From Candidatus Saccharimonadales bacterium (GTDB lineage: Bacteria > Patescibacteriota > WWE3 > UBA101185 > UBA10185), in contig DATIHK010000011.1 in assembly GCA_035480775.1 (NCBI GenBank), positions 1-49,069 of the forward strand: 49,069 nucleotides of DNA. Reading direction: 5' to 3'. Positions 1,921 through 33,376 of this stretch are shown here, piece after piece (the stretch's first letter is position 1; each line of letters starts with the position of its first letter). A program made the position numbers and the translations under genes. The notes under the pieces were generated by a model. It did not search any database. It saw only the letters and a program-made list of their open reading frames with translations, and had not been told where the DNA came from.

Positions 1921-1975
1921 TTTATAAATAAAAAAGCGCCTGCTTCCACAAAAATTCTGTAGTAAGAGGCGCTTT
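1921..1975 (-). terminator. Stem-loop terminator closing GC-rich cassette 1
   Basis: AAAGCGCCT (1933-1941) pairs with AGGCGCTTT (1967-1975). A T-run follows on the minus strand. It lies between the cassette CDS stop and the bcp start. Confidence 0.6.
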
Positions 1976-1995
1976 TGCTAGCTGATTACCCATGA

Positions 1996-2769
1996 TTAGA
2001 CGTGTAGCGGAAGCTGCTTTTCGTCGCCTTCGACAGTCCACCAGTTTGATCGAGCCATAACACCATACAATTGTCCGTCTTCACCTCGAATCCAAACGAC
2101 ACCAACTGGATCATTCTCACCTGGTTCCCAAGTTGCCGGTTCTTGCCCGTAAGCGCGCGCAATAAATCGCAAAAAGTGGCCAGGATCATCGGTGACAAAG
2201 TCCCAGTGACGCGCAAGTTCCAATTTTTCGCCGGGAAAATACTGATTCTCGCGATAGTGCCAGCTACTGGTCTTAAAGTACGTCCGCAAATGGTCTTCAG
2301 CGGGGCGTTCCATTCCACCAAACGTCTGTGAATTGGCAAGTTTGTAGCTGTCCAAATCTGGATAGCGATATCCGACATGATGCAGCTTTAGTCTTTGCTG
2401 CACAGTGTGGTACAAGGTGATCAAAGCAATAAGCTTGTCGTGTTCACCAGCCAGCTTGCTGACGGCGACGATAAAACCGTGTAGGCCGACGCCACCCATA
2501 AGACCTAAGCTGTACTTATTGTCTATTGGCGACATCACTAAAACACCATCTTCACCACCGTGCATCAGCACCATTTCTCCCATCTTGTGGTACGCCAGCA
2601 TCGGCGAAGAGGTCTTGGGATTCTCTGGTACGTTTCCGGCCCAGTTACCGTAAGGCAGCGATTCAATGCTGTTAGGACCAATATTGCAAACTGCTGTGTA
2701 GGTGTACAATTCCATAGCGCTGCAGACGTTCGCAGCAAAAGCATGGGCATTGCTAAGGTCATAATACAT
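1996..2769 (-). CDS. Hypothetical protein (GC-rich cassette 1), 257 aa
   Basis: Longest frame in the GC-rich segment. I trimmed the start to the ATG at 2769, which is preceded by AAGGAG at 7 nt. TTGCTT-17 nt-TATAAT promoter upstream. No domain recognised. Confidence 0.7.
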   Translation of the reverse strand: MYYDLSNAHAFAANVCSAMELYTYTAVCNIGPNSIESLPYGNWAGNVPENPKTSSPMLAYHKMGEMVLMHGGEDGVLVMSPIDNKYSLGLMGGVGLHGFIVAVSKLAGEHDKLIALITLYHTVQQRLKLHHVGYRYPDLDSYKLANSQTFGGMERPAEDHLRTYFKTSSWHYRENQYFPGEKLELARHWDFVTDDPGHFLRFIARAYGQEPATWEPGENDPVGVVWIRGEDGQLYGVMARSNWWTVEGDEKQLPLHV

Positions 2770-2858
2770 TGGAGTAGCTCCTTGGCTATTGGCGAATATT
2801 ACTGAGATTATAGAGTAAAACTCGCCTCCAAGCAACCTATAGGATATTAGGCTGTATT

Positions 2859-3398
2859 TTAGGGATTTATAATTGAGTTGCTAAAAAGGCTCCAAACTTG
2901 CACATCTGTAGGCTCGGTTAAAGACAAGCAGGTCATTATTTCTTGATTTGTCTGACCGTTAGCATCTTTAAACTCTATTGAAGCAGTGGGTGATATCTTA
3001 TAACTAAAAGAAATTGGAGCTGCTTTTGTTCCAGAACATTGTGGGCCATTTGGATAATGAACCATTGAATAAACTTTTTGATTTGGCTGCAATCGATAAA
3101 TACTCACACTTGCTTGTCCTTGCTGACTAACGCTTATATTTTGCACAGTATATGTAGCATCAACAAAGTTATTACCAATAATTTTGCATTCTTTGTTAGA
3201 AATATTTTGAAGCGTCAAATTTCCATAAACATTACCAGCAGCATGCCCAATTTCAATTTGTGCAGAAAGATCGGTTGGACCACAGTATTGATCAGCAATT
3301 AATAATTTAGTGTTTTTAGCATCAAGATAATTTCCAATTGTGTAAGTTACGAAGATTAAAATTAATAAAATTGAAATCAGCCCTAGGGTTCTTTTCAT
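2859..3398 (-). CDS. Secreted/membrane-anchored protein, DUF4232-like
   Basis: N-terminal hydrophobic signal/anchor. Pattern C..DL....GHAAGN..G.L.LQN.S..EC.I.G resembles DUF4232. TATAAT 6 nt upstream of the ATG. Confidence 0.55.
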   Translation of the reverse strand: MKRTLGLISILLILIFVTYTIGNYLDAKNTKLLIADQYCGPTDLSAQIEIGHAAGNVYGNLTLQNISNKECKIIGNNFVDATYTVQNISVSQQGQASVSIYRLQPNQKVYSMVHYPNGPQCSGTKAAPISFSYKISPTASIEFKDANGQTNQEIMTCLSLTEPTDVQVWSLFSNSIINP

Positions 3399-3497
3399 AA
3401 ATATATTATAACTTATTTTTAACTTAAGTTAATTATCTATTTAATAAATTATTTAGTACAATACTGAGAATTGACAATATGATAGAAGGAGGAGCAC

Positions 3498-3671
3498 ATG
3501 AAAACAGCGGTCTGTCCTGAATGTGAAGGTGGCAATGTTCCAGTTGATGGAGTCTTAGCTGGCGAACTCGTGGTCTGTCCAGACTGCGGTGTCGATCTCG
3601 AAGTGACTGCAGTGACTCCAAATGTAGTGCTCGAACTAGCTCCGCAAGAGGCTGAAGATTGGGGCGAGTGA
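3498..3671 (+). CDS. lysW: LysW-type amino-group carrier protein (alpha-aminoadipate/glutamate carrier), 57 aa
   Basis: Not in the ORF track (under 60 aa). My translation: MKTAVCPECEGGNVPVDGVLAGELVVCPDCGVDLEVTAVTPNVVLELAPQEAEDWGE. It has a CPxC...CPDC zinc ribbon and the acidic C-terminal EDWGE tail typical of LysW/ArgW. GAAGGAGG SD upstream. 52% G+C by hand count. Confidence 0.8.
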   Translation: MKTAVCPECEGGNVPVDGVLAGELVVCPDCGVDLEVTAVTPNVVLELAPQEAEDWGE

Positions 3672-3682
3672 GAGAAACAAAA

Positions 3683-3742
3683 AGCGGGTAGGAACCAAGA
3701 GACCACATAGGTTTCTGTAAGGTTCCTACCCGCTCGCTTTTT
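3683..3742. terminator. Bidirectional stem-loop terminator (lysW-like / DUF2795 gene)
   Basis: AGCGGGTAGGAACC (3683-3696) pairs with GGTTCCTACCCGCT (3721-3734). A-run on the left, T-run on the right. It sits between convergent genes. Confidence 0.7.
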
Positions 3743-4059: not shown

Positions 4060-6285
4060 TTATTTAAGAAATTTTAATCTCAAACTATTACTAACAACGG
4101 ATACTGAACTAAAAGCCATTGCAGCACTGGCTATAATAGGAGAAAGTAAAATTCCAAAAGTTGGGTAGAGTAGTCCTGCAGCAATGGGAATACCAATAAT
4201 ATTGTAGCCGAACGCCCACCAAAGATTTTGTTTAATTATTTTAAAAGTTTGAGATGACAATTGAATTGATTCTACAACTTTATCAAGATTTCCTTTTACC
4301 AAAACTATATCACCGGATTCTATAGCCACATCTGTGCCGGTCCCCATTGCAATACCGATATCGGCTTGTACAAGTGCAGGGGCATCATTTATACCATCTC
4401 CAACCATTGCAACAATTTTGTGGCTAGTTTGGTTATTTTGAAGATCTGAAATTTTCTGAACTTTATCTGCAGGAAGTACTTCTGACAAAATTTCAGTGAT
4501 TCCAAGTTGTTTGGCAATTATTTTTGCGGTAATGTTGTGATCTCCTGTGAGCATAACAGGTATAATATTTAAGTCTTTAATCTTTTGGATCGTTTCATGA
4601 GCACCTTCTTTTATGGAGTCAGCGATACCAACAAGAGCTACATTCTCACCGTTTACACTTACATATGATACTGTCTGAGCGTTTTCACGAAGAATCTGGG
4701 CTTTGTCGCTAAAATCTTGTGGAATGGTTACACCGTTATCTGTCATTAATTTAAGATTTCCAATTAAAATAATTTTGTTTTGATACTTTGCTCTAATTCC
4801 AAATCCCGACATATTTTCAAAGTCTGTAATATCAACGCTTTGATCACCTTCTAAATGTCTTACAACAGCTTCTGCCAACGGATGATGAGACTTTTTCTCT
4901 ATACTATAAATAACTGACGAAATTAATTTAGCATCTTGATCTTTAGAAATTTCGTAACTTTTTACTTCAGGTTGACCTTTGGTTAAAGTTCCGGTTTTAT
5001 CGAATACAATGTAATCTAGCTGATGGGCTATTTCTAGTGCTTTAGCGTCTTTTATTAAAATTCCTTTTCTTGCGGCTTTGCCTGTTCCTACCATGACTGC
5101 AGTTGGTGTAGCTAAACCAAGAGCGCACGGACAGGCAATAATTAACACTGTAGTCGCAACATAAACTGCTAATTGTAAAGATCCGGTAGTAATAAACCAA
5201 AATGCAAATGACATCAGCGCTATTACCACAACAATTGGTACAAAAACAGAAGATATTTTGTCTGCAAGTTTTTGTATTGGAGCTTCGCTTCCTTGAGCTT
5301 CTTCTACCATTTTGATTATTTGCGCCAACATCGTTTGTGAGCCAACTTTTGTGGCTCTAAATTTAAAATATCCGGATTTGTTTATAGTCGCTCCAATTAC
5401 GGGTTGCCCAACTGTTTTTTCAACTGGTAGCGATTCGCCGGTAACCATAGATTCGTCTACAGCAGAGCTTCCTTCGGTAACTATTCCGTCTACAGGAATT
5501 TTCTCACCAGGTTTTACAATTAATATGTCTCCAATAATAACTTGGTCAACGGGAATCTTGATTTCTTTATTGTCGCGTACTACTAACGCATCTTTTGCTC
5601 CTAGTTGTACCAATGCTTTTATAGCGTCATTAGTTTGACCTTTAGCCCGTGCTTCAAGTAACCTACCTAATAATATGAAAAATACAATTATGACCGCAGC
5701 TTCAAAAAACACACTAGATTCACTTTGTACATTTTTAAAGGATGTAGGAAAAAATGTTACAACTGTCGAAAATAACCAAGCTGTGAATGTTCCAAGTGCG
5801 ACTAAAGTATCCATGTTAGCAGCTCTAACTCTAAGTGCAGCAAAGGCACTCGTAAAAAATTGTTTTCCGGCTACAAACAAAACTGGTGTAGCGATTAGAA
5901 ATTGAATAATAAAAAATACTGATCGACCGGCTATTTCTCCAAAGAGCATTTTAGGCATCCAAACCATAAAAATTAAAAATGGAATCGTAGCAATCCCACT
6001 AAAAACAACTAGTCTTTTAGTATGTTCGTATTCTTGTTTTTTCATCATGGCAGCATGATCGTGGTGACCAGAATCATTTACTAATTTATAATCTCCGCCA
6101 CTTGCCACTGTTTCTTGAAGTTTTAGGATTGATACTTGTGATTCGTCGTATTCAACCGTCATTTTTTCAGTCGCATAATTTACTGATACTGAAGATACTC
6201 CTGGTAAGTCGCCAACAAGAGTTTCGATTAAAGATTTGCACGAAGCACAATGCATTCCAACAACCGGTAAAATAGATTTTGTCAT
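4060..6285 (-). CDS. copA: Copper-translocating P1B-type ATPase
   Basis: N-terminal HMA domain (GMHCASCKS), CPC motif ([11 protein letters not shown]), DKTGTLT phosphorylation site, GDGINDAP hinge. Start set to the ATG at 6285, which overlaps the upstream stop as ATGA. Confidence 0.9.
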
Positions 6286-7625
6286 ATAACCCTCACAGTC
6301 ACAGGTGGAACCATACCCATTGTGCAAGTAATTTTAAAATCTCCTTTTTCACGAGGAATAAATGCAATTTCGTTTAACCCTCTATGAAGTTCAAGCACTC
6401 CGCTAAAAAGCCCACGACCTACAGCAGCGTTAGCACATCCGCCTGCATCTACATTTAGTATTTGTAGTTTAGTTAATAACCCTTGTTTCACAGTAAAAAA
6501 TCTAGGAAGATATTGATACCCTGTCGCCGTTAATTCAATTGTTCTTGTCGGAACGGCTTCAACTGCTTTTTGTTTTTGCGGAAGTTTTATATCGCTTAAA
6601 CTTTTAAATCCTAAAGCGTTTAATTGAGAATTAAAACTAAAGACACCAAAAAATATAATTAACAAACCGACAGCATAATTAAATTTTGCAGTAAAAGCAG
6701 GTTTAGAATTTAACTTAATACTCGAAAAACTAATCGCTGCCAACATAGGCAAGGTTCCAAGTGCAAAGAAGAGCATAAATATAGCGCCTTTTATAAAACT
6801 TCCAGATGTAAGTGCAACTCCTTGTGCAATCAAAGTAAATCCACATGGAATAAAAAACGTTAAGCCACCTAACACCAGCGGCATAAATTTTCCGGAAAAG
6901 TTATTTTCGTCTGTTATTTGACCTGAAAATCTTTTAGGAATTCTGATTTGAAATCTCGACGCCCATTTAATACCTAGCATTTGCAAACCTATCAGAACCA
7001 TTACTGCTGCTACTGCTAAAGATAAAAATGCCGAAAAATTGGTAGATATTTTAAGCGTTCCGCCAATTACCCCTAAAATTCCACCTAAAACAGCAAAACT
7101 TATTAACCTTCCAATGTTAAAAAGTAAAAATGGTATAGATCTTACAGCAGCACTGTCACCAATGTATATTTCGTTCCACTTTTTTGTCATCGATAAAAGC
7201 AAACCTCCAACTAGCGCAGCACAACTTGAAATTCCTGCCACTAGACCCAACATAAAAAATGCCCCAATTGAAGAAGAGGCGTTGGCTGAAATATTTGCAC
7301 CTATATTTAATTTTTGAATTAATATAAATGCAATAAATATAAATGAAAATATTCCGAACGCTTGCAAAAATTCTCGTTTTTTATTTATTTGCGTTTTAAT
7401 AACAGTTGGAGAAAATATGTATCCGTGTTCTGAAAATTGCTCATTTAATTTATCTATACTAGGAAGCTCATCTGTATAAGCGACTTCAACACGATTTTGA
7501 GATATAAATGCTTTAACTTTGGTAATTCCTTGGTTCTTTAAAAGTTTTTTTTCTATTAATAATTCACAAGAAGCGCAATGCATTCCTTCGACAAAATATG
7601 TATGTTTTTTAGTGTATTCAGCCAT
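6282..7625 (-). CDS. HMA-domain membrane permease (DsbD_2/TauE-like) with C-terminal cupredoxin-like domain
   Basis: N-terminal [15 protein letters not shown] heavy-metal-associated domain and about 6 TM helices (FFIPCGFT motif). Soluble beta-rich C-terminus. Translationally coupled to copA. Confidence 0.65.
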
Positions 7626-7627
7626 GT

Positions 7628-7891
7628 TTAACTTACTTCATATAGAGTCAAAAGCTCTTTGACAGTTTTGTCTTCTTCTTTATTTTGAATCTGGTCAACT
7701 ACACACGTTTTTAGATGATTTTCCAAAATAAATAAATCCAATTTTCTTAAAGCCGTCTGAACTGCTCGCGACTGATGCAATATATCAACACAATAGTCTC
7801 CGCCATCTATCATGCGTTCTACTGCTTTAGTATGTCCTTGGATTATTTTTATGCGGTGAAGTGCTTTTGTTTTACTGGATTTATCTAGCAT
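7628..7891 (-). CDS. csoR: CsoR/RcnR-family metal-sensing transcriptional repressor
   Basis: 87 aa. RIKIIQGHTKAVERMI....YCVDILHQS.AVQ.AL matches the CsoR (DUF156) fold signature with a Cys/His metal site. Confidence 0.85.
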   Translation of the reverse strand: MLDKSSKTKALHRIKIIQGHTKAVERMIDGGDYCVDILHQSRAVQTALRKLDLFILENHLKTCVVDQIQNKEEDKTVKELLTLYEVS

Positions 7892-7898
7892 GATACAT

Positions 7899-7928
7899 AT
7901 GCTAGTCCCCTACGGGGGGATGTGTCAA
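7899..7928 (-). promoter_or_regulatory. csoR-operon promoter with CsoR operator in the spacer
   Basis: On the minus strand: TTGACA (7923-7928), 18-nt spacer CATCCCCCCGTAGGGGAC, TAGCAT (7899-7904), then 7 nt to the ATG. The spacer holds the GC-rich pseudo-palindrome CCCC-n-GGGG typical of CsoR operators such as B. subtilis copZA. Confidence 0.6.
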
Positions 7929-7935
7929 GAGAATG

Positions 7936-9969
7936 TTATAGAGAAGAATTAGGTTCTTTATAAATAATAAGTTCTTGTCCAGGTTTTACCTTAACTCCGC
8001 TTAACATATTGGTTTCTGCAATTTTTTCCCAAGCACTTCCATCTCCATAAAATTCTTGAGAAATGGACCACAATGTATCTCCATCTTTAACAGTATATTT
8101 AACAACTAAATCAGACTGTGCATCTGCAGTAACTGATGGAATTGCCATCTTGTTTTGTACGTATTTTATAGGCATTCGAAGCGTATCTTTATATAAAATG
8201 GCTTCTTTAACATTTGGCTCTGAAACAAATGCTGTTCCTACCAAAAGCACCAGTAACAAGACTGAAACAATTAAGGGTTTTGTTCTAACTAAAACTGCTT
8301 TAAGCAGGCTTGTTCCATCTTTTTGCATATCTAACATATCTTTTATTAGTGCGGTAAAAAATACTAATGCAAACATTAATGAGCCTTGAAGTGCAAACAA
8401 AAGATATCCTTGAATGCTACTTTTGTGAAACACCAATAAGTAGTACCAACAAGAAATCAATGATAACAATATTAAAAGTAAATAATGGCTATGTTGTAAT
8501 ATACTAAACGGACTATTTTGACCTTTATTTATACCTTTAGTAGTGATCATGTAAGGTTTTTCAATTTTTAAGATTACTTGAATAAAAGCACTCAAAACAG
8601 TCGGCCATCTGGCTATGTGCAAAATTATTCCTCTCCAACTTAAGAAAACATTTTTAGGAGAGTGCCATTTATGACTCCAAATCCAAATTACAAAAGCCAT
8701 AATTGCGATTGGTAATGACATAAGCATAAAACTTATATAACTCACATTAGAAATAGGAGTATTTGTAAATAATGAAATTACAGGCAAAATAAACAAAATT
8801 AATAAGCTAGTTGAGTAAAATGTATACCAACTTTGAACGAATAAAAATTGAATCGCTTGTTTAAATGTATATTTTTTAATACATTTTGGAGTGTAATTTA
8901 TTAGTACTTGAATCATCGAAAATGCCCAAGCGAATTGTTGTGCTAAGTAGGTCTCAAAATTTTCTGGTCCGTCTCCAACAGCAATCACTTTTGGAACATA
9001 GACTCCTTGTTTGCCATTAGCAGCTAAAAATACTGTATCTAAATGATCTTCAGCGCGAGTAGGTTGAAAACCTCCAATATTTTTTATTGCAGCCATATCA
9101 TATGTTGAATGACTTCCTATAATAAACGGTGTTTTACAAAATCCGTAAAATCCCATTTGCATAGGACCTTGTAACACGAGCTCTTGTTCGGCAGATCCTC
9201 GAGCGGTCCAATCTTTTAAATTACCGTAAACACTAGGTGCTTGAACCCAGGCGACATTATCATCTCTAAAATAACCTAAAACTTCATCTAAATAATTTGG
9301 ATTTGGTATGTGATCGATATCTAATTGTGTAAAGTGTGAGTAAACACTTCCAAAAGCATCTATCCAAGCATTAACATTTCCAGCTTTAGTCTTAGCTTTA
9401 AATGGAGGAATATCTTGGTTCCATTTTTTAACCAATTTTTGTCCCCAAGTTGATACGTCTTTACGACTAAAATATTTGACTCCTAAGCTATTAGCCATTT
9501 TTTGAATATCTGGTGAGTGTTCTTTATCTACTACAACCCAACTATCGTGGGGAAATTTTACTTTTTTTAAAGCAACTAATTGTTTGCGGACAATGTCTAA
9601 ACTTTCTGATCCTGGAACTGTAGTTGTAATCATGGCAACATTTTTTACAATTCCGGCTTTTACAGCTGCTTTAGCGGGCATCTTTTGCGGTTTTTTCATA
9701 TTACCTAAGTAAAAAAGGTAAAAAGATGGAAGTATTGTGATATCGTAGAAAAAAGCCAATGAAATAAGGCTAAAAAGCACTAAATTACCTATATGTTCAG
9801 GAGTTAACCACCAGGCCCAAAATAAAACATTTACAAAGGTCCATAATGCTACAAGACATATATATTGAGCTGTCTGTTTCTTATTAAGCACGGTTAATTG
9901 CCTTACTGAAAGGCTTTTAAGGAGTTTTGTCTTAGTTGTGGTTTTGGTTCTTACTTGGCTATAGGCCAT
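7936..9969 (-). CDS. Family 2 glycosyltransferase (processive synthase-like, multi-TM) with C-terminal LysM domain
   Basis: GT2 catalytic core between TM segments (DIDH, RAEDH, QQFAWA resembling Q(R/Q)xRW). C-terminal YTVKDGDTLWSISQEFYGDGSAWEKIAETN is a LysM motif. Start placed at ATG 9969 (TATAAT 6 nt upstream) rather than the TTG at 10020. Confidence 0.7.
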   Translation of the reverse strand: MAYSQVRTKTTTKTKLLKSLSVRQLTVLNKKQTAQYICLVALWTFVNVLFWAWWLTPEHIGNLVLFSLISLAFFYDITILPSFYLFYLGNMKKPQKMPAKAAVKAGIVKNVAMITTTVPGSESLDIVRKQLVALKKVKFPHDSWVVVDKEHSPDIQKMANSLGVKYFSRKDVSTWGQKLVKKWNQDIPPFKAKTKAGNVNAWIDAFGSVYSHFTQLDIDHIPNPNYLDEVLGYFRDDNVAWVQAPSVYGNLKDWTARGSAEQELVLQGPMQMGFYGFCKTPFIIGSHSTYDMAAIKNIGGFQPTRAEDHLDTVFLAANGKQGVYVPKVIAVGDGPENFETYLAQQFAWAFSMIQVLINYTPKCIKKYTFKQAIQFLFVQSWYTFYSTSLLILFILPVISLFTNTPISNVSYISFMLMSLPIAIMAFVIWIWSHKWHSPKNVFLSWRGIILHIARWPTVLSAFIQVILKIEKPYMITTKGINKGQNSPFSILQHSHYLLLILLSLISCWYYLLVFHKSSIQGYLLFALQGSLMFALVFFTALIKDMLDMQKDGTSLLKAVLVRTKPLIVSVLLLVLLVGTAFVSEPNVKEAILYKDTLRMPIKYVQNKMAIPSVTADAQSDLVVKYTVKDGDTLWSISQEFYGDGSAWEKIAETNMLSGVKVKPGQELIIYKEPNSSL

Positions 9970-10061
9970 TGAAGTATTATAGGTTATGCCAAAACCTTTG
10001 TCAAAGCCAGGTTGTTGCAATTCAGTTTGAAGTAATTAGCGTGTGTGGTAAAATACTCTAG

Positions 10062-22398: not shown

Positions 22399-22403
22399 AC
22401 GCA

Positions 22404-23890: not shown

Positions 23891-23981
23891 GTTTCATATG
23901 ATACTACAAAACTTTGCGTTTGGGATTTGCTATAATCCAACCATAGAAGGTCTTTGAAAACTAAACTAAAAAGGAGCCACA

Positions 23982-24821: not shown

Positions 24822-24842
24822 AGTAAGACTAGAGTAAAAAAA

Positions 24843-24870
24843 GAGCAACCATTTGTGCGAGTGGTTGCTC
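24843..24870. terminator. Shared stem-loop terminator between convergent genes
   Basis: GAGCAACCA (24843-24851) pairs with TGGTTGCTC (24862-24870). The A-run on the left gives a T-run for the minus-strand gene. Confidence 0.6.
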
Positions 24871-24876
24871 TAAAAT

Positions 24877-26417: not shown

Positions 26418-27629
26418 TCAATTATTAGTTCCAGCCGTTTTAGGAATACTTATCAGCATATCAGCTTGTGGATACCAACTTCCATCGTCTTTTTGCCAAG
26501 CAAAACCTTTAGCACAAGGGTCACTGCTTTTAAAGATAAATGGCGTAATAGCAACAATCTGAGGATTATTTAGCCAGTAATATACAAACGCATCATGATA
26601 TCTAGCAGAAGTAGCTGACGCCGACAATAATCCACTTTGTGAATATTCCACACAACTGCTTTGGCCTTCTCTATGAAGCCACCCAGTTTCGGTAATAAAA
26701 ATTGGCAAACCGCTGATTCCAAAATTATTAGATAAAATTGCATTCTCCCACTTATAGTTAGTAATCGAATCGCGTGAATTATCTAGAATATAACCGCTAA
26801 AATTTGGCTGAGGATATGAATGCGTCGCCCATCCATCGACTTTTCCAAAAATACCTGGAACAGTTTTATTCATTTGAATCATATAGGAATCTTCACTCAT
26901 ATAACGATCTTGTGATCTGGCGCTGCTATTAAAAGCTCCGGCCATAACAAAAAAATTGCTGCTTTTACCTTTAAAAGCTTTTATTGCTCTATTTAAGGTA
27001 TCGGCATATTCGTTAGGCGCAATTCTTTGACACCAATAATCCTTGGCATTCATTTCGTTAAAAATAGTTACGTACCTATGAGTGCTCGGCCATTTAAGTT
27101 TATTTAGCATGTCGGCCAACCCAGAAAAATCCATTTTATCGGGGTTACACACATTATTATTTGAGACCTGAACAATTGGGATAAGTTTACTTTTTGAAGC
27201 AGCATCAAATAAACTCTGCCAGCTAGATTTGTTGCGATCTTTTAAATCCATTGTAAGTAACACCCAGCCCCAAGAGCCTCCATTACTATTTATTAATTTG
27301 GCGGCTGCCTTTATATCATCTGAGGAATTGTTTACATACATTCCAACTTTATTATTAGGAGTACCTCGACCATAAAACTTTTGGCCTGAAGCATCTGTAG
27401 TTCCTTGCCTTGGAGTTGGCGTTGGAGTCGGTGTTGGAGTAGGAGTTGGAATATCGGCTTGTGAAGTTTGCGTAGACTCAACCTGCGCTAGAACTCTGGG
27501 GGAAATTGGGGTCTTTAATGGTATTTTTAGATTGGCTTGGTTTTTAAATACAAAAAAAGTCGAACCAGAAATTAACAGCAACACTGCTGCAGTTATAATA
27601 ATTTTAGAAAATAGCGAGCCGAATTTCAT
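26418..27629 (-). CDS. Secreted clan GH-A-like glycoside hydrolase
   Basis: Signal/anchor, (TP)6 linker, FNEMN (acid/base) and IFITETGW (nucleophile) motifs. Confidence 0.6.
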   Translation of the reverse strand: MKFGSLFSKIIITAAVLLLISGSTFFVFKNQANLKIPLKTPISPRVLAQVESTQTSQADIPTPTPTPTPTPTPRQGTTDASGQKFYGRGTPNNKVGMYVNNSSDDIKAAAKLINSNGGSWGWVLLTMDLKDRNKSSWQSLFDAASKSKLIPIVQVSNNNVCNPDKMDFSGLADMLNKLKWPSTHRYVTIFNEMNAKDYWCQRIAPNEYADTLNRAIKAFKGKSSNFFVMAGAFNSSARSQDRYMSEDSYMIQMNKTVPGIFGKVDGWATHSYPQPNFSGYILDNSRDSITNYKWENAILSNNFGISGLPIFITETGWLHREGQSSCVEYSQSGLLSASATSARYHDAFVYYWLNNPQIVAITPFIFKSSDPCAKGFAWQKDDGSWYPQADMLISIPKTAGTNN

Positions 27630-27669
27630 ACTAATAGTGTGCAGAACTATTGATCAGATGTCAAAAATT

Positions 27670-28248
27670 TTACTTCGCAACCAAATGTCTAAAAAACTCC
27701 AAAAATTTGCTGTAATGAAGATATACTAGATATCCCTCGGCAATTAATAAACCGGGAAATACCACCCCTTTCTCAACAAAAGCGCCTGTTGTAATACGAA
27801 AAGCTTTAAAAGGCGGAATACCAAATCTAACTGGAACTGGAAAAAACCAAGGAACACCTTCTTTGGTAACAGTGTCAGCTATTAAATGTGAAAAATATCC
27901 AATCATAAAGGCCCACCAAACTAAATCCATATTTACAAGCAAAACTGTAGAAATTTTTGCCAATAAAAGTTTTAGCAACCAACCCACTAAAAATAATCCC
28001 AAAAGAGAATGCGAAATCATTCGGTGACTTCCTAAAAGCGGATGAATAATCCGACCAATTATAGAACCAGTTGGAATTTTATTCCAAAGAACTGAAGTCG
28101 GCTCATCCAGATCAGGAGCGACTCCGCCGAGCAAGTTTCCACCAACAGCAACTATTGCTGTGGCCAAGCTCATTTGTGGAATTGGTTGGAGTGTTAAAAC
28201 ATACGTTAATGCTGTAAATGCTGCTAAATCATGAGTTCTTCCGACCAT
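27670..28248 (-). CDS. Membrane-bound metal-dependent hydrolase (YdjM/DUF457-like)
   Basis: 192 aa. N-terminal GRTHD motif, internal HSLLG, 4-5 TM. TAGCAT 6 nt upstream of the ATG. Confidence 0.65.
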   Translation of the reverse strand: MVGRTHDLAAFTALTYVLTLQPIPQMSLATAIVAVGGNLLGGVAPDLDEPTSVLWNKIPTGSIIGRIIHPLLGSHRMISHSLLGLFLVGWLLKLLLAKISTVLLVNMDLVWWAFMIGYFSHLIADTVTKEGVPWFFPVPVRFGIPPFKAFRITTGAFVEKGVVFPGLLIAEGYLVYLHYSKFLEFFRHLVAK

Positions 28249-28278
28249 TCATATATGCTAGCATATGTGTACTGTCCG

Positions 28279-29196
28279 ATGAAAAAGCTATTACTTTTTA
28301 TTATTTTATTAATATTTTTAATTTTTTCTGTTTATTACTTTAATATCAGACCTGTTTCAAATGTTGTTATAAATAATGTGACCCATCCAATTGTTAGTGC
28401 CTTTCAAGATTTAGCAAAAGCAACTATAAATAGACCAAATTTAGAAACTTTATTAACTCCGACTCTAAACAATTATGACGGAAATTATGCGGTTGCAGTC
28501 AAAAATCTTTCTACGCATGAAACTTATTACTACAACGAATCTCGAGCTTATCAATCAGCAAGTTTATATAAACTTTGGGTAATGGCTGTTGCATATCAAC
28601 AAATCCAAAATGGAAGATTTTCAGAAAACCAAGAAATTAGCGCGAAAATTGAAGATTTGATTAAAAACTATAATGTGGACGACGCATACGAACAAAGATT
28701 ATCTGAAACGCTTGATTACAACCTTAACAATGCATTAGAAATGATGATTACAGTGTCTGATAATGATGCCGCTTTGTTGCTAGTTGATAAGGTTGGAATA
28801 TCTAATATAACTAATTTCTTAAAACAAAATAAACTTATAAGTACCGATATGGGTACTGACACTACACAACCTGTAACGTCGGCAAAAGATGTGGCTGATT
28901 TTTTTGAAAATCTTGAACTAGGTAAAATTGCAAAACCTCAATATACAGACAAAATGTTAACGCTCTTGAGAGCTCAAAAATTAAATTCAAAGATTCCGGC
29001 ACTTTTACCCAAAGAAGTTGTCATAGGGCATAAAACAGGTGAACTAGACGGATACTCTCACGATGCTGGAATTGTATATACTCCAAAAGGTAACTATATA
29101 ATTGTGGTTTTAACTAATACAAATAATCCAAAACTGGCGAATCAACATATAGCTGAAATCTCAAAAATAGTTTACGAGTATTTTGTAGTAAAGTAA
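28279..29196 (+). CDS. Class A beta-lactamase-like serine hydrolase (secreted)
   Basis: Start chosen at MKKLLLF (signal peptide). SASLYK (SxxK), SDN and HKTG motifs. Confidence 0.75.
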   Translation: MKKLLLFIILLIFLIFSVYYFNIRPVSNVVINNVTHPIVSAFQDLAKATINRPNLETLLTPTLNNYDGNYAVAVKNLSTHETYYYNESRAYQSASLYKLWVMAVAYQQIQNGRFSENQEISAKIEDLIKNYNVDDAYEQRLSETLDYNLNNALEMMITVSDNDAALLLVDKVGISNITNFLKQNKLISTDMGTDTTQPVTSAKDVADFFENLELGKIAKPQYTDKMLTLLRAQKLNSKIPALLPKEVVIGHKTGELDGYSHDAGIVYTPKGNYIIVVLTNTNNPKLANQHIAEISKIVYEYFVVK

Positions 29197-29463
29197 TTAA
29201 GATCTACGATTTTTACCTTTAAAATAATCAAACAAAAAGATAAGTGTAAATGAAATAACAAACCAAAATATTGCGTCTTTAACTAGGCCAAGCATAATTA
29301 ATTTATCTTCTCGAATACCTACAAATCCCCCACTGCCGCCATAAAAAGAAAAAGGCCAACCTGCATGAAAAAATTGGTCACAACACTCTCCTTTATTATT
29401 TATGAAATAGGAAACACCTATAAAAATAGTAGCTAACAAAATTGTAAATATTACTTTTTTCAT
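29197..29463 (-). CDS. Small membrane protein, 88 aa
   Basis: Start trimmed to the ATG at 29463 (MKKVIFTILL...) because the track ORF runs into tRNA-Gly. Two TM segments. Confidence 0.5.
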   Translation of the reverse strand: MKKVIFTILLATIFIGVSYFINNKGECCDQFFHAGWPFSFYGGSGGFVGIREDKLIMLGLVKDAIFWFVISFTLIFLFDYFKGKNRRS

Positions 29464-29466
29464 TTT

Positions 29467-29541
<75 letters not shown>

Positions 29542-29552
29542 GAATGCAACGA

Positions 29553-29603
29553 GCGGAATTAAGAGGAAGCGCAGCCAACAGGCGAGCAAGCTCTTATTCC
29601 CGC
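29553..29603 (-). other. 5' leader hairpin of pre-tRNA-Gly containing a copy of the tRNA 5' end
   Basis: On the minus strand GCGGGAATAAGAG (29591-29603) pairs with CTCTTAATTCCGC (29553-29565) across a 25-nt loop. TATTCCCGCGAA occurs twice, at 29533-29544 and 29595-29606. TATAAT at 29616-29621 lies just upstream. Confidence 0.5.
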
Positions 29604-29712
29604 GAACACTGAAGCATTATAAAGCAGACGTGTGTATTTTACTAGTTGTAACTCAATTTAAAGATTTGATATTATAACCTTAATTCGTCGCGACTATTGA
29701 TAGGAGATCTTC

Positions 29713-29964
29713 ATGGCTAGTTACGTTTTGGCACAGATAGCCCAAAACTCTCACTATGCACTTTATGATGCATTAAAAGCAATTCCACATGTCACTGCTG
29801 TTACAGATATAAATCACCGACGATGGGATCTTCAAATTGCATTGGATGGAAATGACTCAGAAATGTCTGCTGCACGCGACACAATTTTAGGTCGAAGTGG
29901 ACACTTACCTCCAGGAATTGTGATCGTCAGTGGAATCAGAAATGGAAAAATCAAAAAAAAGTAA
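29713..29964 (+). CDS. Hypothetical small protein (GC-rich cassette 6), 83 aa; possible stand-alone RAM/AsnC-C-terminal-like domain
   Basis: TAGGAG SD. YVLAQI......L.AIPHVTAVTDI..RWDLQIAL.G.D resembles the Lrp/AsnC ligand-binding (RAM) domain. This rests on pattern only. Confidence 0.55.
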   Translation: MASYVLAQIAQNSHYALYDALKAIPHVTAVTDINHRRWDLQIALDGNDSEMSAARDTILGRSGHLPPGIVIVSGIRNGKIKKK

Positions 29965-29980
29965 TGAGTTGCACGGCTCC

Positions 29981-30016
29981 AGCCGGGATTCCCTCTGGGA
30001 TTCTCGGCTTTTTTTA
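29981..30016 (+). terminator. Rho-independent terminator
   Basis: AGCCGGGATTCCC-TCT-GGGATTCTCGGCT followed by TTTTTTT. Confidence 0.75.
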
Positions 30017-30029
30017 AAAATAACTTACA

Positions 30030-30115
30030 TGGTGGGCGAGACAGGAGTTGAACCTGCACGAGTTTTACCTCACAACGACCTCAACGTTGCGCGTATACCA
30101 TTCCGCCACTCGCCC
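30030..30115 (-). tRNA. tRNA-Leu (anticodon GAG)
   Basis: 86 nt with a long variable arm. Acceptor GGGCGAG/CTCGCCC. Anticodon stem CAACG/CGTTG, loop TTGAGGT. TATAAT at 30136-30141. Confidence 0.9.
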
Positions 30116-30151
30116 TTGTACCTCAAAACATTCGCATTATATCAGTTAATC

Positions 30152-30238
30152 TGGTGCCAGAGGAGGGATTTGAACCCTCATCCCCGTGAAGGGACAGCCT
30201 TCTGAAGACTGCGTGTCTACCAATTTCACCACTCTGGC
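30152..30238 (-). tRNA. tRNA-Leu (anticodon CAG)
   Basis: 87 nt with a long variable arm. Acceptor GCCAGAG/CTCTGGC. Anticodon loop TTCAGAA. Encoded CCA. Confidence 0.9.
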
Positions 30239-30249
30239 GAACGAAGTGA

Positions 30250-30292
30250 GCCAGTGGAAGGTTCTGAGCGAAGCTCAGGTTCTTACTCTGGC
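30250..30292 (-). other. 5' leader hairpin of pre-tRNA-Leu(CAG) containing a copy of the tRNA 5' end
   Basis: On the minus strand GCCAGAGTAAG..CTGAGC-TTC-GCTCAG..CTTCCACTGGC forms an imperfect hairpin. GCCAGAGT (the first 8 nt of the tRNA) is repeated at its 5' edge: ACTCTGGC at 30231-30238 and 30285-30292. TGcTATAAT at 30314-30322. Confidence 0.45.
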
Positions 30293-30340
30293 AATCTATG
30301 TTAACTTGTTGGTATTATAGCAATTTGCTTGATAGATAGG

Positions 30341-30937
30341 TTATGGCTGAATAGTAATTCCTCTGATAGTTTTTAAAACAGCATTTACGGCAGCTTCTTG
30401 TGATTCTGGAACTGTAGAGTAATAAACAATCACTTTTATATCTTTGTTATTAGCTGTTTTACCAATAAGGTAATAGTCTTTGGATCCACAAAAATCCACT
30501 GATGTTATTAACTGATTACCAATGGGAAATGTTTTTGGAGTTGATTTAAAACCTCCTCCACAATCTGTTCCACCTACTTCAGAAGTAATATCTATAATGC
30601 GTGAGAACTGAGAAGAGCTAATTGAAATAGTAGTAGCTTCATAGTTTAACCGTTTTACTACATTTTCTTCAACATTCCATTGAATAGGCACATCCACAGA
30701 AAACATATACTGTGGATTGGAATAGGAATCCCAGGTTGCACTTTTTAATGATATCGAAGATTTAGCTGGCATAGCTTTAACCGGCGAAGTAACAGCTATT
30801 TGTGGAATTGTGCTAGCAATAGATTCTTGATATTTAATTCCCCAATTAAAAGCAGCAAATGGAAAAATAATAAATATTAATAGAGCTAGAAATTTCGAAA
30901 CTCTGGTAACAGTGGTAAGTTCAGATGGAAGTTTCAC
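30341..30937 (-). CDS. Hypothetical membrane-anchored protein
   Basis: The track ORF overlaps tRNA-Lys, so I trimmed it to the in-frame GTG at 30937 (VKLPSELTT...). The start is uncertain. One TM, then a beta-rich domain. Confidence 0.5.
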   Translation of the reverse strand: MKLPSELTTVTRVSKFLALLIFIIFPFAAFNWGIKYQESIASTIPQIAVTSPVKAMPAKSSISLKSATWDSYSNPQYMFSVDVPIQWNVEENVVKRLNYEATTISISSSQFSRIIDITSEVGGTDCGGGFKSTPKTFPIGNQLITSVDFCGSKDYYLIGKTANNKDIKVIVYYSTVPESQEAAVNAVLKTIRGITIQP

Positions 30938-30976
30938 AACATGAGTATAGCGTATTTTATTTTTAATTCTATTATT

Positions 30977-31051
30977 TGGTGAGGACGGTGGGAATCGAAC
31001 CCACGACAAAGGGATTAAGAGTCCCCTGCTCTACCTCTGAGCTACGTCCCC
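30977..31051 (-). tRNA. tRNA-Lys (anticodon CTT)
   Basis: Reverse complement GGGGACGTAGCTCAGAGGTAGAGCAGGGGACTCTTAATCCCTTTGTCGTGGGTTCGATTCCCACCGTCCTCACCA. Loop CTCTTAA. Confidence 0.9.
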
Positions 31052-31193
31052 TCGAACAAAGTGAGAGTGTTATCTTTGCAGCGCTATTTTACTATACTAA
31101 TCACATTTATAGAATTGCCACTTCACAATATCACTATATGTAGTAATCTAGATTCGAAGGAAGCGATTCCTATCTTAAAGGTTGGAGGGCAAA

Positions 31194-31397
31194 ATGTTGC
31201 TTCGAGTGCACGACAACAGATCCAAAGTGGCAACACTGCTGTTTATGCACGTACAAGGAATAACCAACAAAGATGAACGTCCTGTATTTAAGGTGCTTGG
31301 CAATCGCCACGGCACACATTGCAGCATTACAGCTACAAGATCAGACATGGAGCAGATTCGCACCATTCTCGAAATTCAAGGTGTGGAGATTGCTTAA
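31194..31397 (+). CDS. Hypothetical small protein (GC-rich cassette 7), 67 aa
   Basis: Start moved to the ATG at 31194, preceded by GGAGGG at 4 nt. No family recognised. Confidence 0.55.
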   Translation: MLLRVHDNRSKVATLLFMHVQGITNKDERPVFKVLGNRHGTHCSITATRSDMEQIRTILEIQGVEIA

Positions 31398-31423
31398 TGA
31401 ACACAAAATCATCGATCCAGTTA

Positions 31424-31455
31424 CTCAAGAAAGGAGGGAGACTGGATCTTTTTTT
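31424..31455 (+). terminator. Rho-independent terminator
   Basis: GATCCAGT (31424-31431) pairs with ACTGGATC (31441-31448), followed by TTTTTTT. Confidence 0.75.
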
Positions 31456-31479
31456 GTGAATACCCATACCCTATAGCAA

Positions 31480-31508
31480 TTGACTTTGAAGCTAAAATGT
31501 CCTATAAT
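31480..31508 (+). promoter_or_regulatory. Sigma-70-type promoter
   Basis: TTGACT (31480-31485), 17-nt spacer, TATAAT (31503-31508). Confidence 0.65.
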
Positions 31509-31514
31509 GATGGT

Positions 31515-31793
31515 GTTTGTGAGAGAACGACAAGATAGCCGATATTTGGGGAAAAGTTGTTCTCTCAATAACTTCCCCAAATACCGGCTAATTTTGTGGC
31601 TTTAATGCCATTTTAGCTGTGTACCTTGAAAATCTATTGTTCTACTACTAAAGAGGTCTCAGGCCACCCGGGCTTAATACTGGGCAGGAATTAAGCCTGG
31701 ATTGCCTGCAGATCTCTAGCATTACCAGAGGACTGTTTAGGTGTAGTAAGGGGCAGATTTGTTAACTAGCGGCCATTTGGCCATACAAGGAGA
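31515..31793 (+). promoter_or_regulatory. Long structured 5' leader (candidate cis-regulatory RNA) of the 490-aa cassette gene
   Basis: Interleaved helices 31520-31528/31559-31567 (9 bp) and 31536-31553/31573-31590 (18 bp, 1 mismatch). A compound hairpin at 31652-31717 includes a perfect GGCTTAAT/ATTAAGCC helix. GGCC-ATTT-GGCC lies next to the SD. Confidence 0.45.
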
Positions 31794-31799
31794 ATGGAA

Positions 31800-33272
31800 A
31801 TGAATAGGACGAAAGCACTGTTGTTAGTGGTTATCGCTTTGTTGTTTGGCATCCTGGTTTATAGCATGAAAACGAACCAGGTGCTGATTCAAAACAGCAA
31901 CGCGGAGATGACCCAGCAAGCTGAGCTGATCGCGACGAACGTGCAGCTCTCCACCAAGGTGGCGCAGTACGAAGGACAAGATCCCACGTTTGTGCCGGCC
32001 ACTTTCACCGAAGTTGTTTCCACTCCGCAACCCATAATCACCCGAACGATCCTCGTCACTGAAAAGCCGACGCTCTACAGCAGCTACATTTACAGCTTCA
32101 CGAGTTCGCCGGCGGAGTATGGTTCCTTCTTCATCATGTGGAAATTGCAAATAGACCCCCAGGGTCTTCCACAAGATGCGGCTTGGGGCCAGATGCACGA
32201 AGCCTTCAAGCTCGTGAAAAATAGCTGCCCCTACAGCGGCTATGAGACCAACAACTTCGGACTGTCGTATATGGCTATCAATCGTGACAGCTACAGCACC
32301 ATTCCCATGACGGCTGGTTGCTGGAGCATTCTCGAGGCTGTCACCGGCAATACGCTTCAGCAAAGCGACCCAACTTTCGGCCACGATCGCGAGATCGATT
32401 GCCACTTCGGCGTCGCGTGCCAAATCCTTACTGCGCAAGAAATTATCACGGCGCAGAAGTCGCTCGTCGCCGATAATACCAACCTGTTGGTTGACCCCAA
32501 TGGGCAGGCATATTCGACGATCCGCGAGTACAACAGAAACGAACCCAACTTTTACAGCTGGACCGGCATCGGCGAACGCTTTTTGTTCCCGAGCACGGTC
32601 AAGTTTGAGGAGTCTGGGTCGGCACCACTCATGGGCATCACCAACTGGGATAGCAAACAACTTTGCTACCGGTCGGCGGGTCATGTCGGTTTCGGAGAAA
32701 TTCCACAATTCGTTCCCGGTGGCGAAACTCGCTGCCTCGATCCAAAAGTGGACTTCAAGAATCTCACTGCCGACGACCGCCCATTCTGGAATCTGGTGAG
32801 TCAGGGCTATGCTGACAATGGTCGGCTAGTTTTTACCTGGATCTGGATACCGGAACTGAAAGATGGCAAGCTCGTGATTCACGTCCTCGACATCGACGTC
32901 ACGCGCCTCATTCCAGCGGCCATGCCAACAAACATTGGCACGAAGTTCGATGTTCCATATACCGCTTACCCAGCGAAAGCCTACTCATGGGGTAATGGTG
33001 ATCTCGTCAAGCTGGTGGCCGTCACCTGGAGCTATCAAAACTCCACGGCTACTGACACTCAGTGGCGCGGCCTGATCCATCAGTTCGAAAGCATTACCCT
33101 CGAACTGGATGACAAGACCCAGGTCACACTCACCTCAGGCTTCAATGCCAAGCTTCCAAACGGCGTCGAAGAATTCAGCTACGTGCCTGTGAACTTTATA
33201 GGCCGTAGCGCCGTGGTGGATCTGAGTGAGTTTGAAGCTGATGAGAGGGTAATTTTCGATTTCAGGATGTAG
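31800..33272 (+). CDS. Hypothetical membrane-anchored protein (GC-rich cassette 7), 490 aa
   Basis: AAGGAG sits 7 nt upstream of the ATG at 31800; the track start at 31794 is too close to the SD. One N-terminal TM, then a large Cys-containing domain with no recognisable family. Confidence 0.7.
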   Translation: MNRTKALLLVVIALLFGILVYSMKTNQVLIQNSNAEMTQQAELIATNVQLSTKVAQYEGQDPTFVPATFTEVVSTPQPIITRTILVTEKPTLYSSYIYSFTSSPAEYGSFFIMWKLQIDPQGLPQDAAWGQMHEAFKLVKNSCPYSGYETNNFGLSYMAINRDSYSTIPMTAGCWSILEAVTGNTLQQSDPTFGHDREIDCHFGVACQILTAQEIITAQKSLVADNTNLLVDPNGQAYSTIREYNRNEPNFYSWTGIGERFLFPSTVKFEESGSAPLMGITNWDSKQLCYRSAGHVGFGEIPQFVPGGETRCLDPKVDFKNLTADDRPFWNLVSQGYADNGRLVFTWIWIPELKDGKLVIHVLDIDVTRLIPAAMPTNIGTKFDVPYTAYPAKAYSWGNGDLVKLVAVTWSYQNSTATDTQWRGLIHQFESITLELDDKTQVTLTSGFNAKLPNGVEEFSYVPVNFIGRSAVVDLSEFEADERVIFDFRM

Positions 33273-33309
33273 AACAATAGATATAACCCCCGTATAACGG
33301 GAAACTTCA

Positions 33310-33376
33310 CAGGGCAGCTCGCGACGACATAAAGACCACCCGGTCCTCTCGTTGCCAGCTGCCCTGTTTCATTTTT
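33310..33376 (+). terminator. Stem-loop terminator closing cassette 7
   Basis: CAGGGCAGCT (33310-33319) pairs with AGCTGCCCTG (33357-33366), with an inner GCGACGA/TCGTTGC helix, followed by TTTCATTTTT. Confidence 0.7.

Follow-up and report, generated by a model that had tools for sequence, protein, structure and literature searches.

We examined a 49,069-nt contig (DATIHK010000011.1; hereafter the window) from a metagenome-assembled genome (MAG) of a Candidatus Saccharimonadales bacterium, a member of the Patescibacteria or Candidate Phyla Radiation (CPR), and we infer that the GC-rich stretches scattered along this chromosome segment (36.1% G+C overall) were probably acquired horizontally, as autonomous, moron-like expression units. 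An earlier note on this DNA had singled out seven such stretches, here called cassettes 1 to 7, whose limits as given there add up to about 7.2 kb (15% of the window) and whose neighbors are housekeeping genes (pyrH, tRNA genes, and genes for a histidine kinase, a peroxiredoxin and glycosyltransferases). We favor horizontal acquisition because the compositional shift is very large and extends to every codon position and to the encoded proteins, because the cassette borders coincide with the limits of transcription units, because high GC is not intrinsic to the only family whose members could be followed widely, because members of the cassette families occur in unrelated contexts, and because the products are population-specific ORFans. 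Throughout, the 11 open reading frames (ORFs) of the cassettes were compared with a native reference set of 41 ORFs lying outside them.

Most cassette genes depart from native composition and codon usage

A 400-nt sliding profile of G+C content resolved discrete peaks of 0.44–0.55 at approximately 2.0–2.8, 15.8–16.4, 20.8–21.4, 24.0–24.8, 29.8–30.4, and 31.0–33.4 kb, over a background of 0.27–0.39. At the borders of the units, G+C climbed from ~25–35% to ~50% in 100-nt steps, each border being less than 100 nt wide. Native ORFs had a GC content of 0.338 ± 0.029 and a G+C content at third codon positions (GC3) of 0.235 ± 0.032 (range 0.17–0.32), while 10 of the 11 cassette ORFs had GC3 values of 0.37–0.66, which lie 4.3–13.3 standard deviations over the native mean. 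Scored under a model of native usage, the synonymous-codon likelihood was likewise 4.5–13.5 standard deviations low for 10 of the 11. The contrast between GC-rich segments and AT-rich surroundings that had been described from hand counts was therefore borne out by the sliding window, by codon usage and by the sharpness of the borders, and at the level of single genes it held for all cassette ORFs except one. The exception was the 83-aa coding sequence (CDS) of cassette 6 (29713–29964), with a GC3 of 0.26 (z = 0.8) and a codon usage like that of native genes; the local GC maximum around this cassette derives largely from the flanking tRNA-Gly gene and two tRNA-Leu genes.

The deviation extended beyond synonymous sites. 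Codon positions 1 and 2 of the cassette ORFs were GC-enriched as well, and their amino acids were shifted away from Phe, Tyr, Met, Ile, Asn, and Lys (FYMINK) and toward Gly, Ala, Arg, and Pro (GARP). Since GC was raised at all three codon positions and the amino acids had shifted as well, we take the pattern to point to long residence in a GC-richer background rather than to a local synonymous effect. For the 279-aa gene of cassette 5, about half of the GC excess fell at codon position 2 (0.59), due to a Thr/Ser/Pro/Ala linker in its product. The GC3 values of the deviant ORFs are spread over 0.37–0.66, and the donors were probably several.

Cassette and native genes differ in their translation signals

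A GGAG-type Shine-Dalgarno sequence (SD) located 3–17 nt before the start codon was found for 8 of the 11 cassette ORFs vs. 5 of the 41 native ORFs (Fisher p = 2e-4), and a TANNNT hexamer ending 3–12 nt before the start was found for 26 of the 41 native ORFs vs. none of the 11 cassette ORFs (p = 2.6e-4). Reading the DNA allowed several starts to be refined: the 257-aa gene of cassette 1 starts at 2769, the mechanically called “87-aa” ORF of cassette 4 most likely starts at GTG 21327, behind AAGGAG, and the large gene of cassette 7 most likely starts at ATG 31800, 7 nt past AAGGAG, in agreement with its annotation as a 490-aa protein in a second assembly (see below). With the refined starts at 21327 and 31800, and with AAGGA counted, an SD was present in 10 of the 11 cassette ORFs, so that the canonical GGAG motif once ascribed to each of them is present in most rather than all. 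A similar adjustment applied to the stem-loop terminators said to close every unit. Eight of the nine units are closed by a hairpin (−13.7 to −34.9 kcal/mol) with a T-run behind it, and a scan for hairpins with T-runs found no canonical terminator for the 490-aa gene. The promoter-like sites that we give for the cassettes are consensus matches only.

The hexamer counts agree with the earlier description of most native units as leaderless-looking, and the start-adjacent −10 boxes suggest that the native transcriptome of this Saccharimonadales lineage may be predominantly leaderless. In full-text searches of one literature library for leaderless expression in Saccharibacteria or CPR, we found no description of a split between SD-led and leaderless initiation by gene class, and it is this apparent dichotomy, together with the leader hairpin conserved in the 490-aa family, that goes beyond routine.

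At most native genes, a TATAAT- or TACAAT-like box stands 5–8 nt before the start with no SD (e.g., 11801, 11856, 17355, 19210, 19610, 21607, and 44964). The loci and contigs retrieved for comparison are labeled L001–L027; among them, L019, L021, L022, and L024 are related contigs, and L002, L003, L004, L008, and L010 are contigs with homologs of the 490-aa gene. Start-adjacent −10 boxes without an SD were seen likewise in L019, L021, L022, and L024.

Cassettes 3–7 recur in independently made assemblies

The window comes from a MAG and its composition shifts abruptly, as would be expected if GC-rich reads of another organism had been spliced into the contig during assembly or binning. The same segments were, nevertheless, present in independently made assemblies. 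The separately deposited assembly GCA_964473275.1 (contig CAYYOH010000005.1) matched window positions 6529–24616 at 99.97% and 27310–34400 at 99.8%, which covers cassettes 3–7, with further matching stretches up to window position 43777 at 99.2–99.7%, and a fragment of the cassette-1 protein was found on the same contig. In the Logan assembly of SRR9179559, cassette 3 was located between the histidine kinase gene and pyrH, at 99.97% identity. The presence of cassettes 3–7 in a second assembly, and of cassette 3 in a third, at 99.7–99.97% identity over the stretches that carry them, indicates that they are genuine and not chimeras. Other features also speak against an artefact: the inserts are 0.3–2.3 kb long with native sequence on both sides within one contig, their borders coincide with promoters and terminators, and the single-nucleotide polymorphisms (SNPs) that separate strains within the 490-aa gene are mostly synonymous. 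We therefore regard misassembly as having next to no probability.

The differences between the assemblies were clustered (32537–32729, 36285–36393, 40450–40561, and 43027–43087), fell mostly at third positions and occurred in cassette and native genes; they look like homologous-recombination tracts between co-existing strains. Within the 279-aa gene, 3′ of the Thr/Ser/Pro linker, the second assembly also had a scaffold gap of 100 N and an overlap of 55 nt (window 24562–24616 vs. L001 3363–3462 and L027 18089–18188); the gene caller there took an ORF on the opposite strand, an example of mis-annotation.

The 490-aa gene of cassette 7 and its leader hairpin

The 490-aa protein has an N-terminal membrane anchor. 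A word-indexed protein search with it returned nothing beyond itself, and an exhaustive phmmer search of 1.84 billion representatives returned 13 distant relatives at 21–34% identity. The sole named relative was from Candidatus Woesebacteria, on an 845-kb contig; the genomic contexts that we fetched for the homologs look like CPR genomes, and many of the homologs carry lipoprotein-type signal peptides and a Thr/Pro linker. In several contigs the GC content of the homolog was near that of its surroundings (L008, 0.37 vs. 0.35; L004, 0.45 vs. 0.42; L010, 0.47 vs. 0.42). Because the homolog is near-native in Woesebacteria-type and other CPR genomes, high GC does not characterize the family. Structure prediction with AlphaFold, from the family alignment, gave a confident model with a mean predicted local distance difference test (pLDDT) score of 80, and the predicted fold had no match in the PDB or BFVD.

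Between the two strains, the 490-aa gene showed 12 synonymous vs. 3 non-synonymous codon differences, with 12 of the 15 at third codon positions, from which we conclude that the gene is translated and under purifying selection. The same third-position bias bears on the idea that the cassettes are GC-rich structured non-coding RNAs rather than protein genes. In AT-rich genomes, GC-rich islands often turn out to be RNA genes, and the small ORFs (60, 67, 74, and 83 aa) individually have weak coding evidence. Against this, Rfam returned tRNAs only, at both gathering and E-value thresholds, the long ORFs (257, 249, 279, and 490 aa) come with well-spaced SDs and terminators, and two of the long ORFs have homologs at the protein level. 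That the cassettes are RNA genes seems to us hardly credible.

The leader of the 490-aa gene, ~285 nt long, could be aligned with the regions upstream of its homologs even though the proteins are only ~30% identical. Within it lies a hairpin of 21 bp (31655–31713, plus strand), for which 92% of the cells in the alignment were paired and compensatory changes occurred at 10 of the 21 pairs; none of 500 shuffles reached the observed values, and the covariation collapsed in slid-register controls. The hairpin was found in five other CPR contigs (L002 ~360–432, L003 ~2365–2437, L004 ~9843–9915, L008 ~9874–9943, and L010 ~1410–1481), in most homologs with a U-rich stretch on its 3′ side. Matches to a covariance model of the hairpin were confined to leaders of the 490-aa family among the 380 kb searched (the window and 21 loci), and Rfam 15 gave nothing at E ≤ 5 in 31050–31810 or in the homologous leaders of L002 and L003. 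The hairpin is a candidate for a new cis-regulatory, attenuator-like RNA. Its conservation with covariation across loci indicates that promoter, leader and CDS behave as one heritable unit. Just 5′ of the hairpin there is also a conserved block, which reads GTACCTTGAAAATCT in the window and GTACCTTAAAAATCT in L003 and is nearly the same in L004 and L008.

In four other CPR contigs, the 490-aa homolog stands beside a conserved divergent gene pair encoding proteins of ~318 aa (with a winged-helix-like C-terminus) and ~359 aa (L004 7635–9667, L008 7721–9701, L003 155–2193), which are 47–57% identical between contigs and are probably a dedicated regulator of the homologs. Direct repeats of TGTCC lie 5′ of the homolog (L003 2200–2260, L004 9690–9750, L008 9720–9760). 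We found no remnants of this regulator pair in the window, where cassette 7 is a promoter-leader-CDS module of a CPR-specific family standing alone between tRNA-Lys and tRNA-Arg.

Relatives of the cassette genes and the possibility of a native second gene class

Homologs were also found for the 257-aa protein of cassette 1. L021 encodes a 261-aa homolog (27% identity, E = 1e-23) that shares the motifs HHVG and RSNWW, and L025, a JGI contig, encodes one that is 38% identical. L021 is the same as L026 in the overlap that was examined, and its PyrH is 75% identical to that of the window. The homologs occur in unrelated gene contexts, and the 179-aa genes that adjoin the family members in the window and in L021 had no detectable homology to each other.

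In the related contigs retrieved with PyrH, the genes bearing an SD were the GC-richest and had no family matches, while the low-GC genes had start-adjacent −10 boxes. This pairing of SD and higher GC in related Saccharimonadales contigs points to a lineage-wide pattern that is not peculiar to the present genome, and it can be read in two ways, either as foreign genes with SDs that steadily enter leaderless genomes or as a resident second class of genes. In the latter case, the cassettes would be lineage-specific, fast-evolving, SD-led genes, mostly small and encoding exported or membrane proteins, that are inherited vertically and are nonetheless GC-richer than the leaderless core; possible causes are selection acting on expression or on properties of the mRNA, or else GC-biased gene conversion at accessory loci prone to recombination.

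A number of observations lend weight to such a resident class and count against horizontal acquisition as we read it. When five related contigs were pooled with the window excluded, SD-led genes deviated by +0.057 in GC3 from their contig median, vs. −0.013 for the others (Mann-Whitney p = 0.002), and the GC-richer SD-led genes tested in L026 are, like the cassette genes, Pfam-less. Homologs of the 257-aa gene are SD-led or GC-elevated relative to their neighbors (L021, 0.41 vs. 0.34–0.37; L025, 0.44 vs. 0.35), as are, in GC, some homologs of the 490-aa gene (mildly in L003, 0.47 vs. 0.35–0.41, and in the best match, L002, a short contig, 0.54 vs. flanks of 0.38–0.43). The clustered synonymous SNPs described above suggest active homologous recombination in the population. 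No empty insertion site or donor sequence was found in the relatives retrieved with PIG-L or PyrH as anchors, none of which has a gene order in common with the window: relatives retrieved with the PIG-L anchor in Genome Taxonomy Database (GTDB) genomes were 42–57% identical and had no common neighbors, and the nearest relatives by PyrH were 74–81% identical. Without an empty site, acquisition is argued from composition and phyletic pattern only. The closest homolog of any cassette protein is 38% identical, which means that any transfer came from unsampled lineages, and the exhaustive homology search covered one of the 11 cassette proteins, that of 490 aa. Finally, two ideas attached to the acquisition hypothesis have no direct support in the window: entry by natural competence, our favored route, on which the window bears only through its lack of recombinases and repeats, and a surface function for the membrane-anchored or exported products, which may act at the cell surface in an epibiotic lifestyle.

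Set against this are the size and reach of the shift, with GC3 values of up to 0.66 compared with a native mean of 0.235 and with effects on codon positions 1 and 2 and on amino acids, which is far above what is generally reported for gene conversion or expression. Moreover, the 490-aa homolog has near-native GC elsewhere (as in L008 and L004), family members lack microsynteny and sit in unrelated contexts, and the SNP clusters also occur in native genes without any elevation of GC there. On balance, a native second class appears unlikely to us, and horizontal acquisition remains the explanation that we prefer. The foreign composition of the cassettes, their own SDs and terminators, and the purifying selection on the 490-aa gene sustain in part the proposal that they were acquired as insulated, individually promoted genes; the single higher-GC donor first envisaged gives way to probably several.

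Two further loci stood out in the related contigs. An SD-led gene at L021 2484–3797 (= L026 11206–12519), with a GC content of 0.52, encodes a membrane-anchored protein of 437 aa that contains a nine-cysteine run (CCCCCCCCCNCGC), long repeats of the PTKSPEPTKTHEPT type and a tail rich in Lys, Asp, and Gly. L026 14827–18035 is a three-gene operon for Pfam-less proteins of 596, 322, and 132 aa (GC 0.45–0.48, GC3 0.46–0.50), a multi-gene counterpart of the window cassettes.

Mobility signatures and comparison with known systems

Domain scans and gene tables revealed no integrase, transposase or phage domain in any ORF of the window, no repeat family common to the cassettes, and no border-to-border repeats or target-site duplications beyond those in shuffled controls; nor was the 3′ end of tRNA-Arg repeated at the far border of cassette 7. 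The absence of recombinase genes and flanking direct repeats reported in the earlier note is thus upheld. Equally, the tRNA neighbors of three cassettes (Gln; Gly/Leu/Leu; Lys/Arg) were verified.

Morons, a concept attributed to Hendrix and Juhala, are reportedly autonomous promoter-gene-terminator units inserted between phage genes. The units in the window are similar in having one to three genes, a promoter-like site, a Rho-independent terminator (in eight of nine) and a deviant composition, with no recombinase or repeats; they differ in lying within a bacterial chromosome among housekeeping genes rather than in a prophage, and in having no detected phage homologs. It is this anatomy that makes a phage origin worth weighing, that is, that the cassettes are remnants of decayed prophages or mobile elements, either true phage morons or cargo left after the loss of the element. 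Three of them lie beside tRNA genes, which are common integration targets, and ORFans are typical of phage-derived genes. However, no PHROG family scored above noise, a tblastn search of 50,697 INPHARED phage records with the 257-aa and 492-aa proteins (the latter being the annotated form of the 490-aa protein) found nothing, pattern scans of IMG/VR gave no relatives, and a fold search of BFVD gave no match. Integrases, att-like repeats and duplicated tRNA 3′ ends were all lacking, and the immediate neighbors are housekeeping genes (pyrH, tRNA, histidine kinase and peroxiredoxin). These viral scans had low sensitivity, and CPR phages are poorly sampled. We judge an origin from decayed phages or mobile elements to be quite improbable, and below that of a native gene class.

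The position of three units directly beside tRNAs and their deviant composition also recall tRNA-linked integrative islands. In contrast to such islands, the window units are only 0.3–2.3 kb long, lack an integrase and show no direct repetition of a tRNA 3′ end, and two of these three units face the 5′ end of the tRNA or sit between tRNAs. With integron cassettes they have in common their small size, mostly a single ORF of unknown function, and an inverted repeat at the 3′ side. Unlike integron cassettes, they are scattered and have their own promoter-like sites and SDs, and their 3′ hairpins are ordinary terminators with T-runs, with no common attC-like sequence; no intI was found in the window.

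Proposed route of acquisition and significance

In the scheme that we propose, DNA would be taken up by natural competence and then inserted into intergenic DNA by illegitimate recombination. Each foreign unit would come to occupy an intergenic gap as an autonomous transcription unit made up of a sigma-70-type promoter, a leader of 25–285 nt with an SD, one to three ORFs and a Rho-independent terminator, and it would retain from its GC-richer donor the composition, the codon usage, the bias in amino acids and the use of an SD for initiation. The 490-aa gene would have come with its own conserved structured leader. The donors of the 490-aa and 257-aa genes were probably other Patescibacteria, as homologs of these genes were found only on contigs of CPR/Patescibacteria type. 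Saccharibacteria are naturally competent (PMC10633639, PMC10187176), and their competence (PMC10633639) makes this a plausible route of entry.

The general phenomenon, in which composition reveals horizontal gene transfer into Patescibacteria, has been documented before: genomic islands and genes transferred singly have been reported by the hundreds, mostly reflecting exchange within the phylum and reaching up to 13% of genome length (PMC12455944). The cassettes are for this reason less remarkable in a reduced genome than had been suggested. They agree with that account (PMC12455944) in the sizeable foreign share of a reduced CPR genome (15% of the window vs. up to 13%), in donors that would be largely Patescibacteria, and in the proposal of competence; they differ in that the units in the window are resolved to their expression signals and in the contrast between SD-dependent and apparently leaderless initiation.

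Patescibacteria have tiny genomes and depend on hosts, and the source of their lineage-specific surface and secreted proteins therefore bears on host adaptation. The window offers a view of single units, in which foreign genes would have settled as complete, insulated expression modules without a recombinase while keeping a different mode of initiation. If this dichotomy were true genome-wide, recently acquired genes could be flagged cheaply, by an SD in combination with GC3, in CPR genomes dominated by leaderless genes; it would also matter for gene calling and for the design of constructs to express genes in Saccharibacteria, which have lately become tractable. A small but concrete outcome is the leader hairpin, a candidate for a new CPR cis-regulatory RNA.

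Taken together, these elements allow a broader reading, which we put forward as a tentative and rather doubtful one: that initiation mode marks gene origin, with a vertically inherited leaderless core and incomers that long stay SD-led as complete promoter-leader-SD-terminator modules, so that two expression architectures would exist side by side and SD and GC3 would serve as an acquisition clock. One such module would have kept an undescribed, covarying, attenuator-like leader hairpin of 21 bp with a CPR-specific surface-protein family over phylum-level distances.

Gene content of the cassettes

The single-gene acquisition that had been proposed does not hold for every cassette: cassette 3 is made up of an operon of two genes and a gene divergent from it, and cassette 4 of a divergent pair. 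Cassette 1 lies on the minus strand, with the 257-aa CDS (HSX39044.1; 1996–2769) at a GC of 0.49 and a GC3 of 0.52 (z = 8.9), an AAGGAG SD at 2779–2784, and an intrinsic terminator at 1932–1976 (minus strand) formed by a hairpin of −22.5 kcal/mol and a T-run; its product has no family match. Cassette 2 (3486–3734, plus strand) consists of an AAGGAGG SD (3486–3492), lysW (3498–3671, 57 aa; GC3 0.38, z = 4.5) and a terminator of −34.9 kcal/mol (3683–3734).

The minus-strand operon of cassette 3 (15795–16365) begins with a 60-aa ORF (16183–16365; GC3 0.52, z = 9.0), followed by a 124-aa ORF (15795–16169; GC3 0.51, z = 8.6) whose GGAG SD sits in the 13-nt spacer between them, and ends in an intrinsic terminator at 15722–15779 (minus strand); neither product has a family match. 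A divergent promoter region of ~29% GC (16366–16528) contains promoter-like sites at 16434–16406 (minus) and 16451–16480 (plus), and beyond it the plus-strand unit 16529–17332 has an AGGAGG SD, a gene for a 249-aa protein with predicted transmembrane segments (HSX39059.1; 16529–17278, GC3 0.37, z = 4.3) and a terminator at 17300–17332. In cassette 4, the minus unit (20817–21214) has a 105-aa CDS (20897–21214; GC3 0.42, z = 5.6) with a GGGAG SD and a terminator at ~20817–20854, and adjoins the 5′ end of tRNA-Gln (20685–20758). The plus unit (21268–21583) has an extended −10 promoter-like site (21268–21297), an AAGGAG SD and a terminator at 21557–21583; its CDS probably starts at GTG 21327 (74 aa), as opposed to TTG 21288 in the mechanical ORF (21288–21551; GC3 0.39, z = 4.7).

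Cassette 5 (23971–24871, plus strand) carries an AAGGAG SD, the 279-aa CDS (23982–24821; GC3 0.39, z = 4.7) and a terminator at 24842–24871; by inspection, the protein is laid out as an N-terminal transmembrane helix, a linker of ~100 aa rich in Thr, Ser, Pro, and Ala, and a C-terminal domain. Cassette 6 (29698–30009, plus strand), with an AGGAG SD ahead of the 83-aa CDS and a terminator at 29966–30009, lies between tRNA-Gly (29467–29541) and tRNA-Leu (30030–30115). Cassette 7 is bounded on the left by tRNA-Lys(CTT) (30977–31051, minus strand) and on the right by tRNA-Arg(TCG) (33412–33488, minus strand), the 3′ end of which points toward the cassette. Its upstream part (31060–31476, plus strand; GC 0.40–0.47) holds a doubtful 67-aa ORF without an SD (31273–31476; GC3 0.49, z = 7.8) and a hairpin with a T-run at ~31416–31456. 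The best promoter-like site (TTGACT-17-TATAAT, 11 of 12 matches; 31480–31508, plus strand) implies the leader of ~285 nt, and the main CDS region (31787–33272, plus strand; GC 0.53) comprises an AAGGAG SD at 31787–31792 and the 490-aa ORF from the probable ATG at 31800 (31800–33272; GC3 0.66, z = 13.3), annotated as HSX39080.1 from 31794 (492 aa).

With the exception of LysW, no cassette product matched Pfam, PHROG, NCBIfam or PADLOC above noise, which agrees with the earlier count of 10 of 11 CDSs without a confident function, and each product formed a 90%-identity cluster confined to its own population. The 249-aa protein has several hydrophobic helices by inspection, and it, the 279-aa protein and the 490-aa protein are, judging from their sequences, likely to be membrane-anchored or exported, as had been predicted. 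A defense-system origin was rejected, PADLOC having yielded a low-complexity match only. The 124-aa product (15795–16169) has a Met-Pro start, and its repeated beta-alpha-beta pattern brings the tautomerase superfamily (MIF/CHMI) to mind. Membership in that superfamily is a guess: there was no Pfam match, the single-sequence model was poor (pLDDT 59), and the sole MIF-like fold match was non-significant.

The 57-aa product is a LysW-type carrier protein. It matched PF21344 at 46.1 bits (cut-off 27) and TIGR01206 at 53.1 bits, just below the cut-off of 53.2, and it aligned end to end with LysW of Thermus thermophilus (PDB 3wwl, E = 2e-11). LysW is typical of Thermus, Chloroflexi and archaea, and LysW/ArgW carriers act together with an ATP-grasp ligase (LysX/ArgX) and with the enzymes LysZ/Y/J/K, the genes usually being clustered. 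The window protein is like this family in its two zinc-ribbon CxxC pairs and C-terminal EDWGE tail and unlike it in having no partner gene, as no LysX/ArgX ligase or other α-aminoadipate (AAA) pathway partner was found in the 49-kb window. This orphan LysW sits in an organism that is expected to lack lysine and arginine biosynthesis. Among the native genes, a copper-homeostasis cluster at 4060–7891 encodes a P1B ATPase of the CopA type that carries an HMA domain, together with an HMA-DsbD_2 membrane protein and a metal-sensing repressor of the CsoR type.

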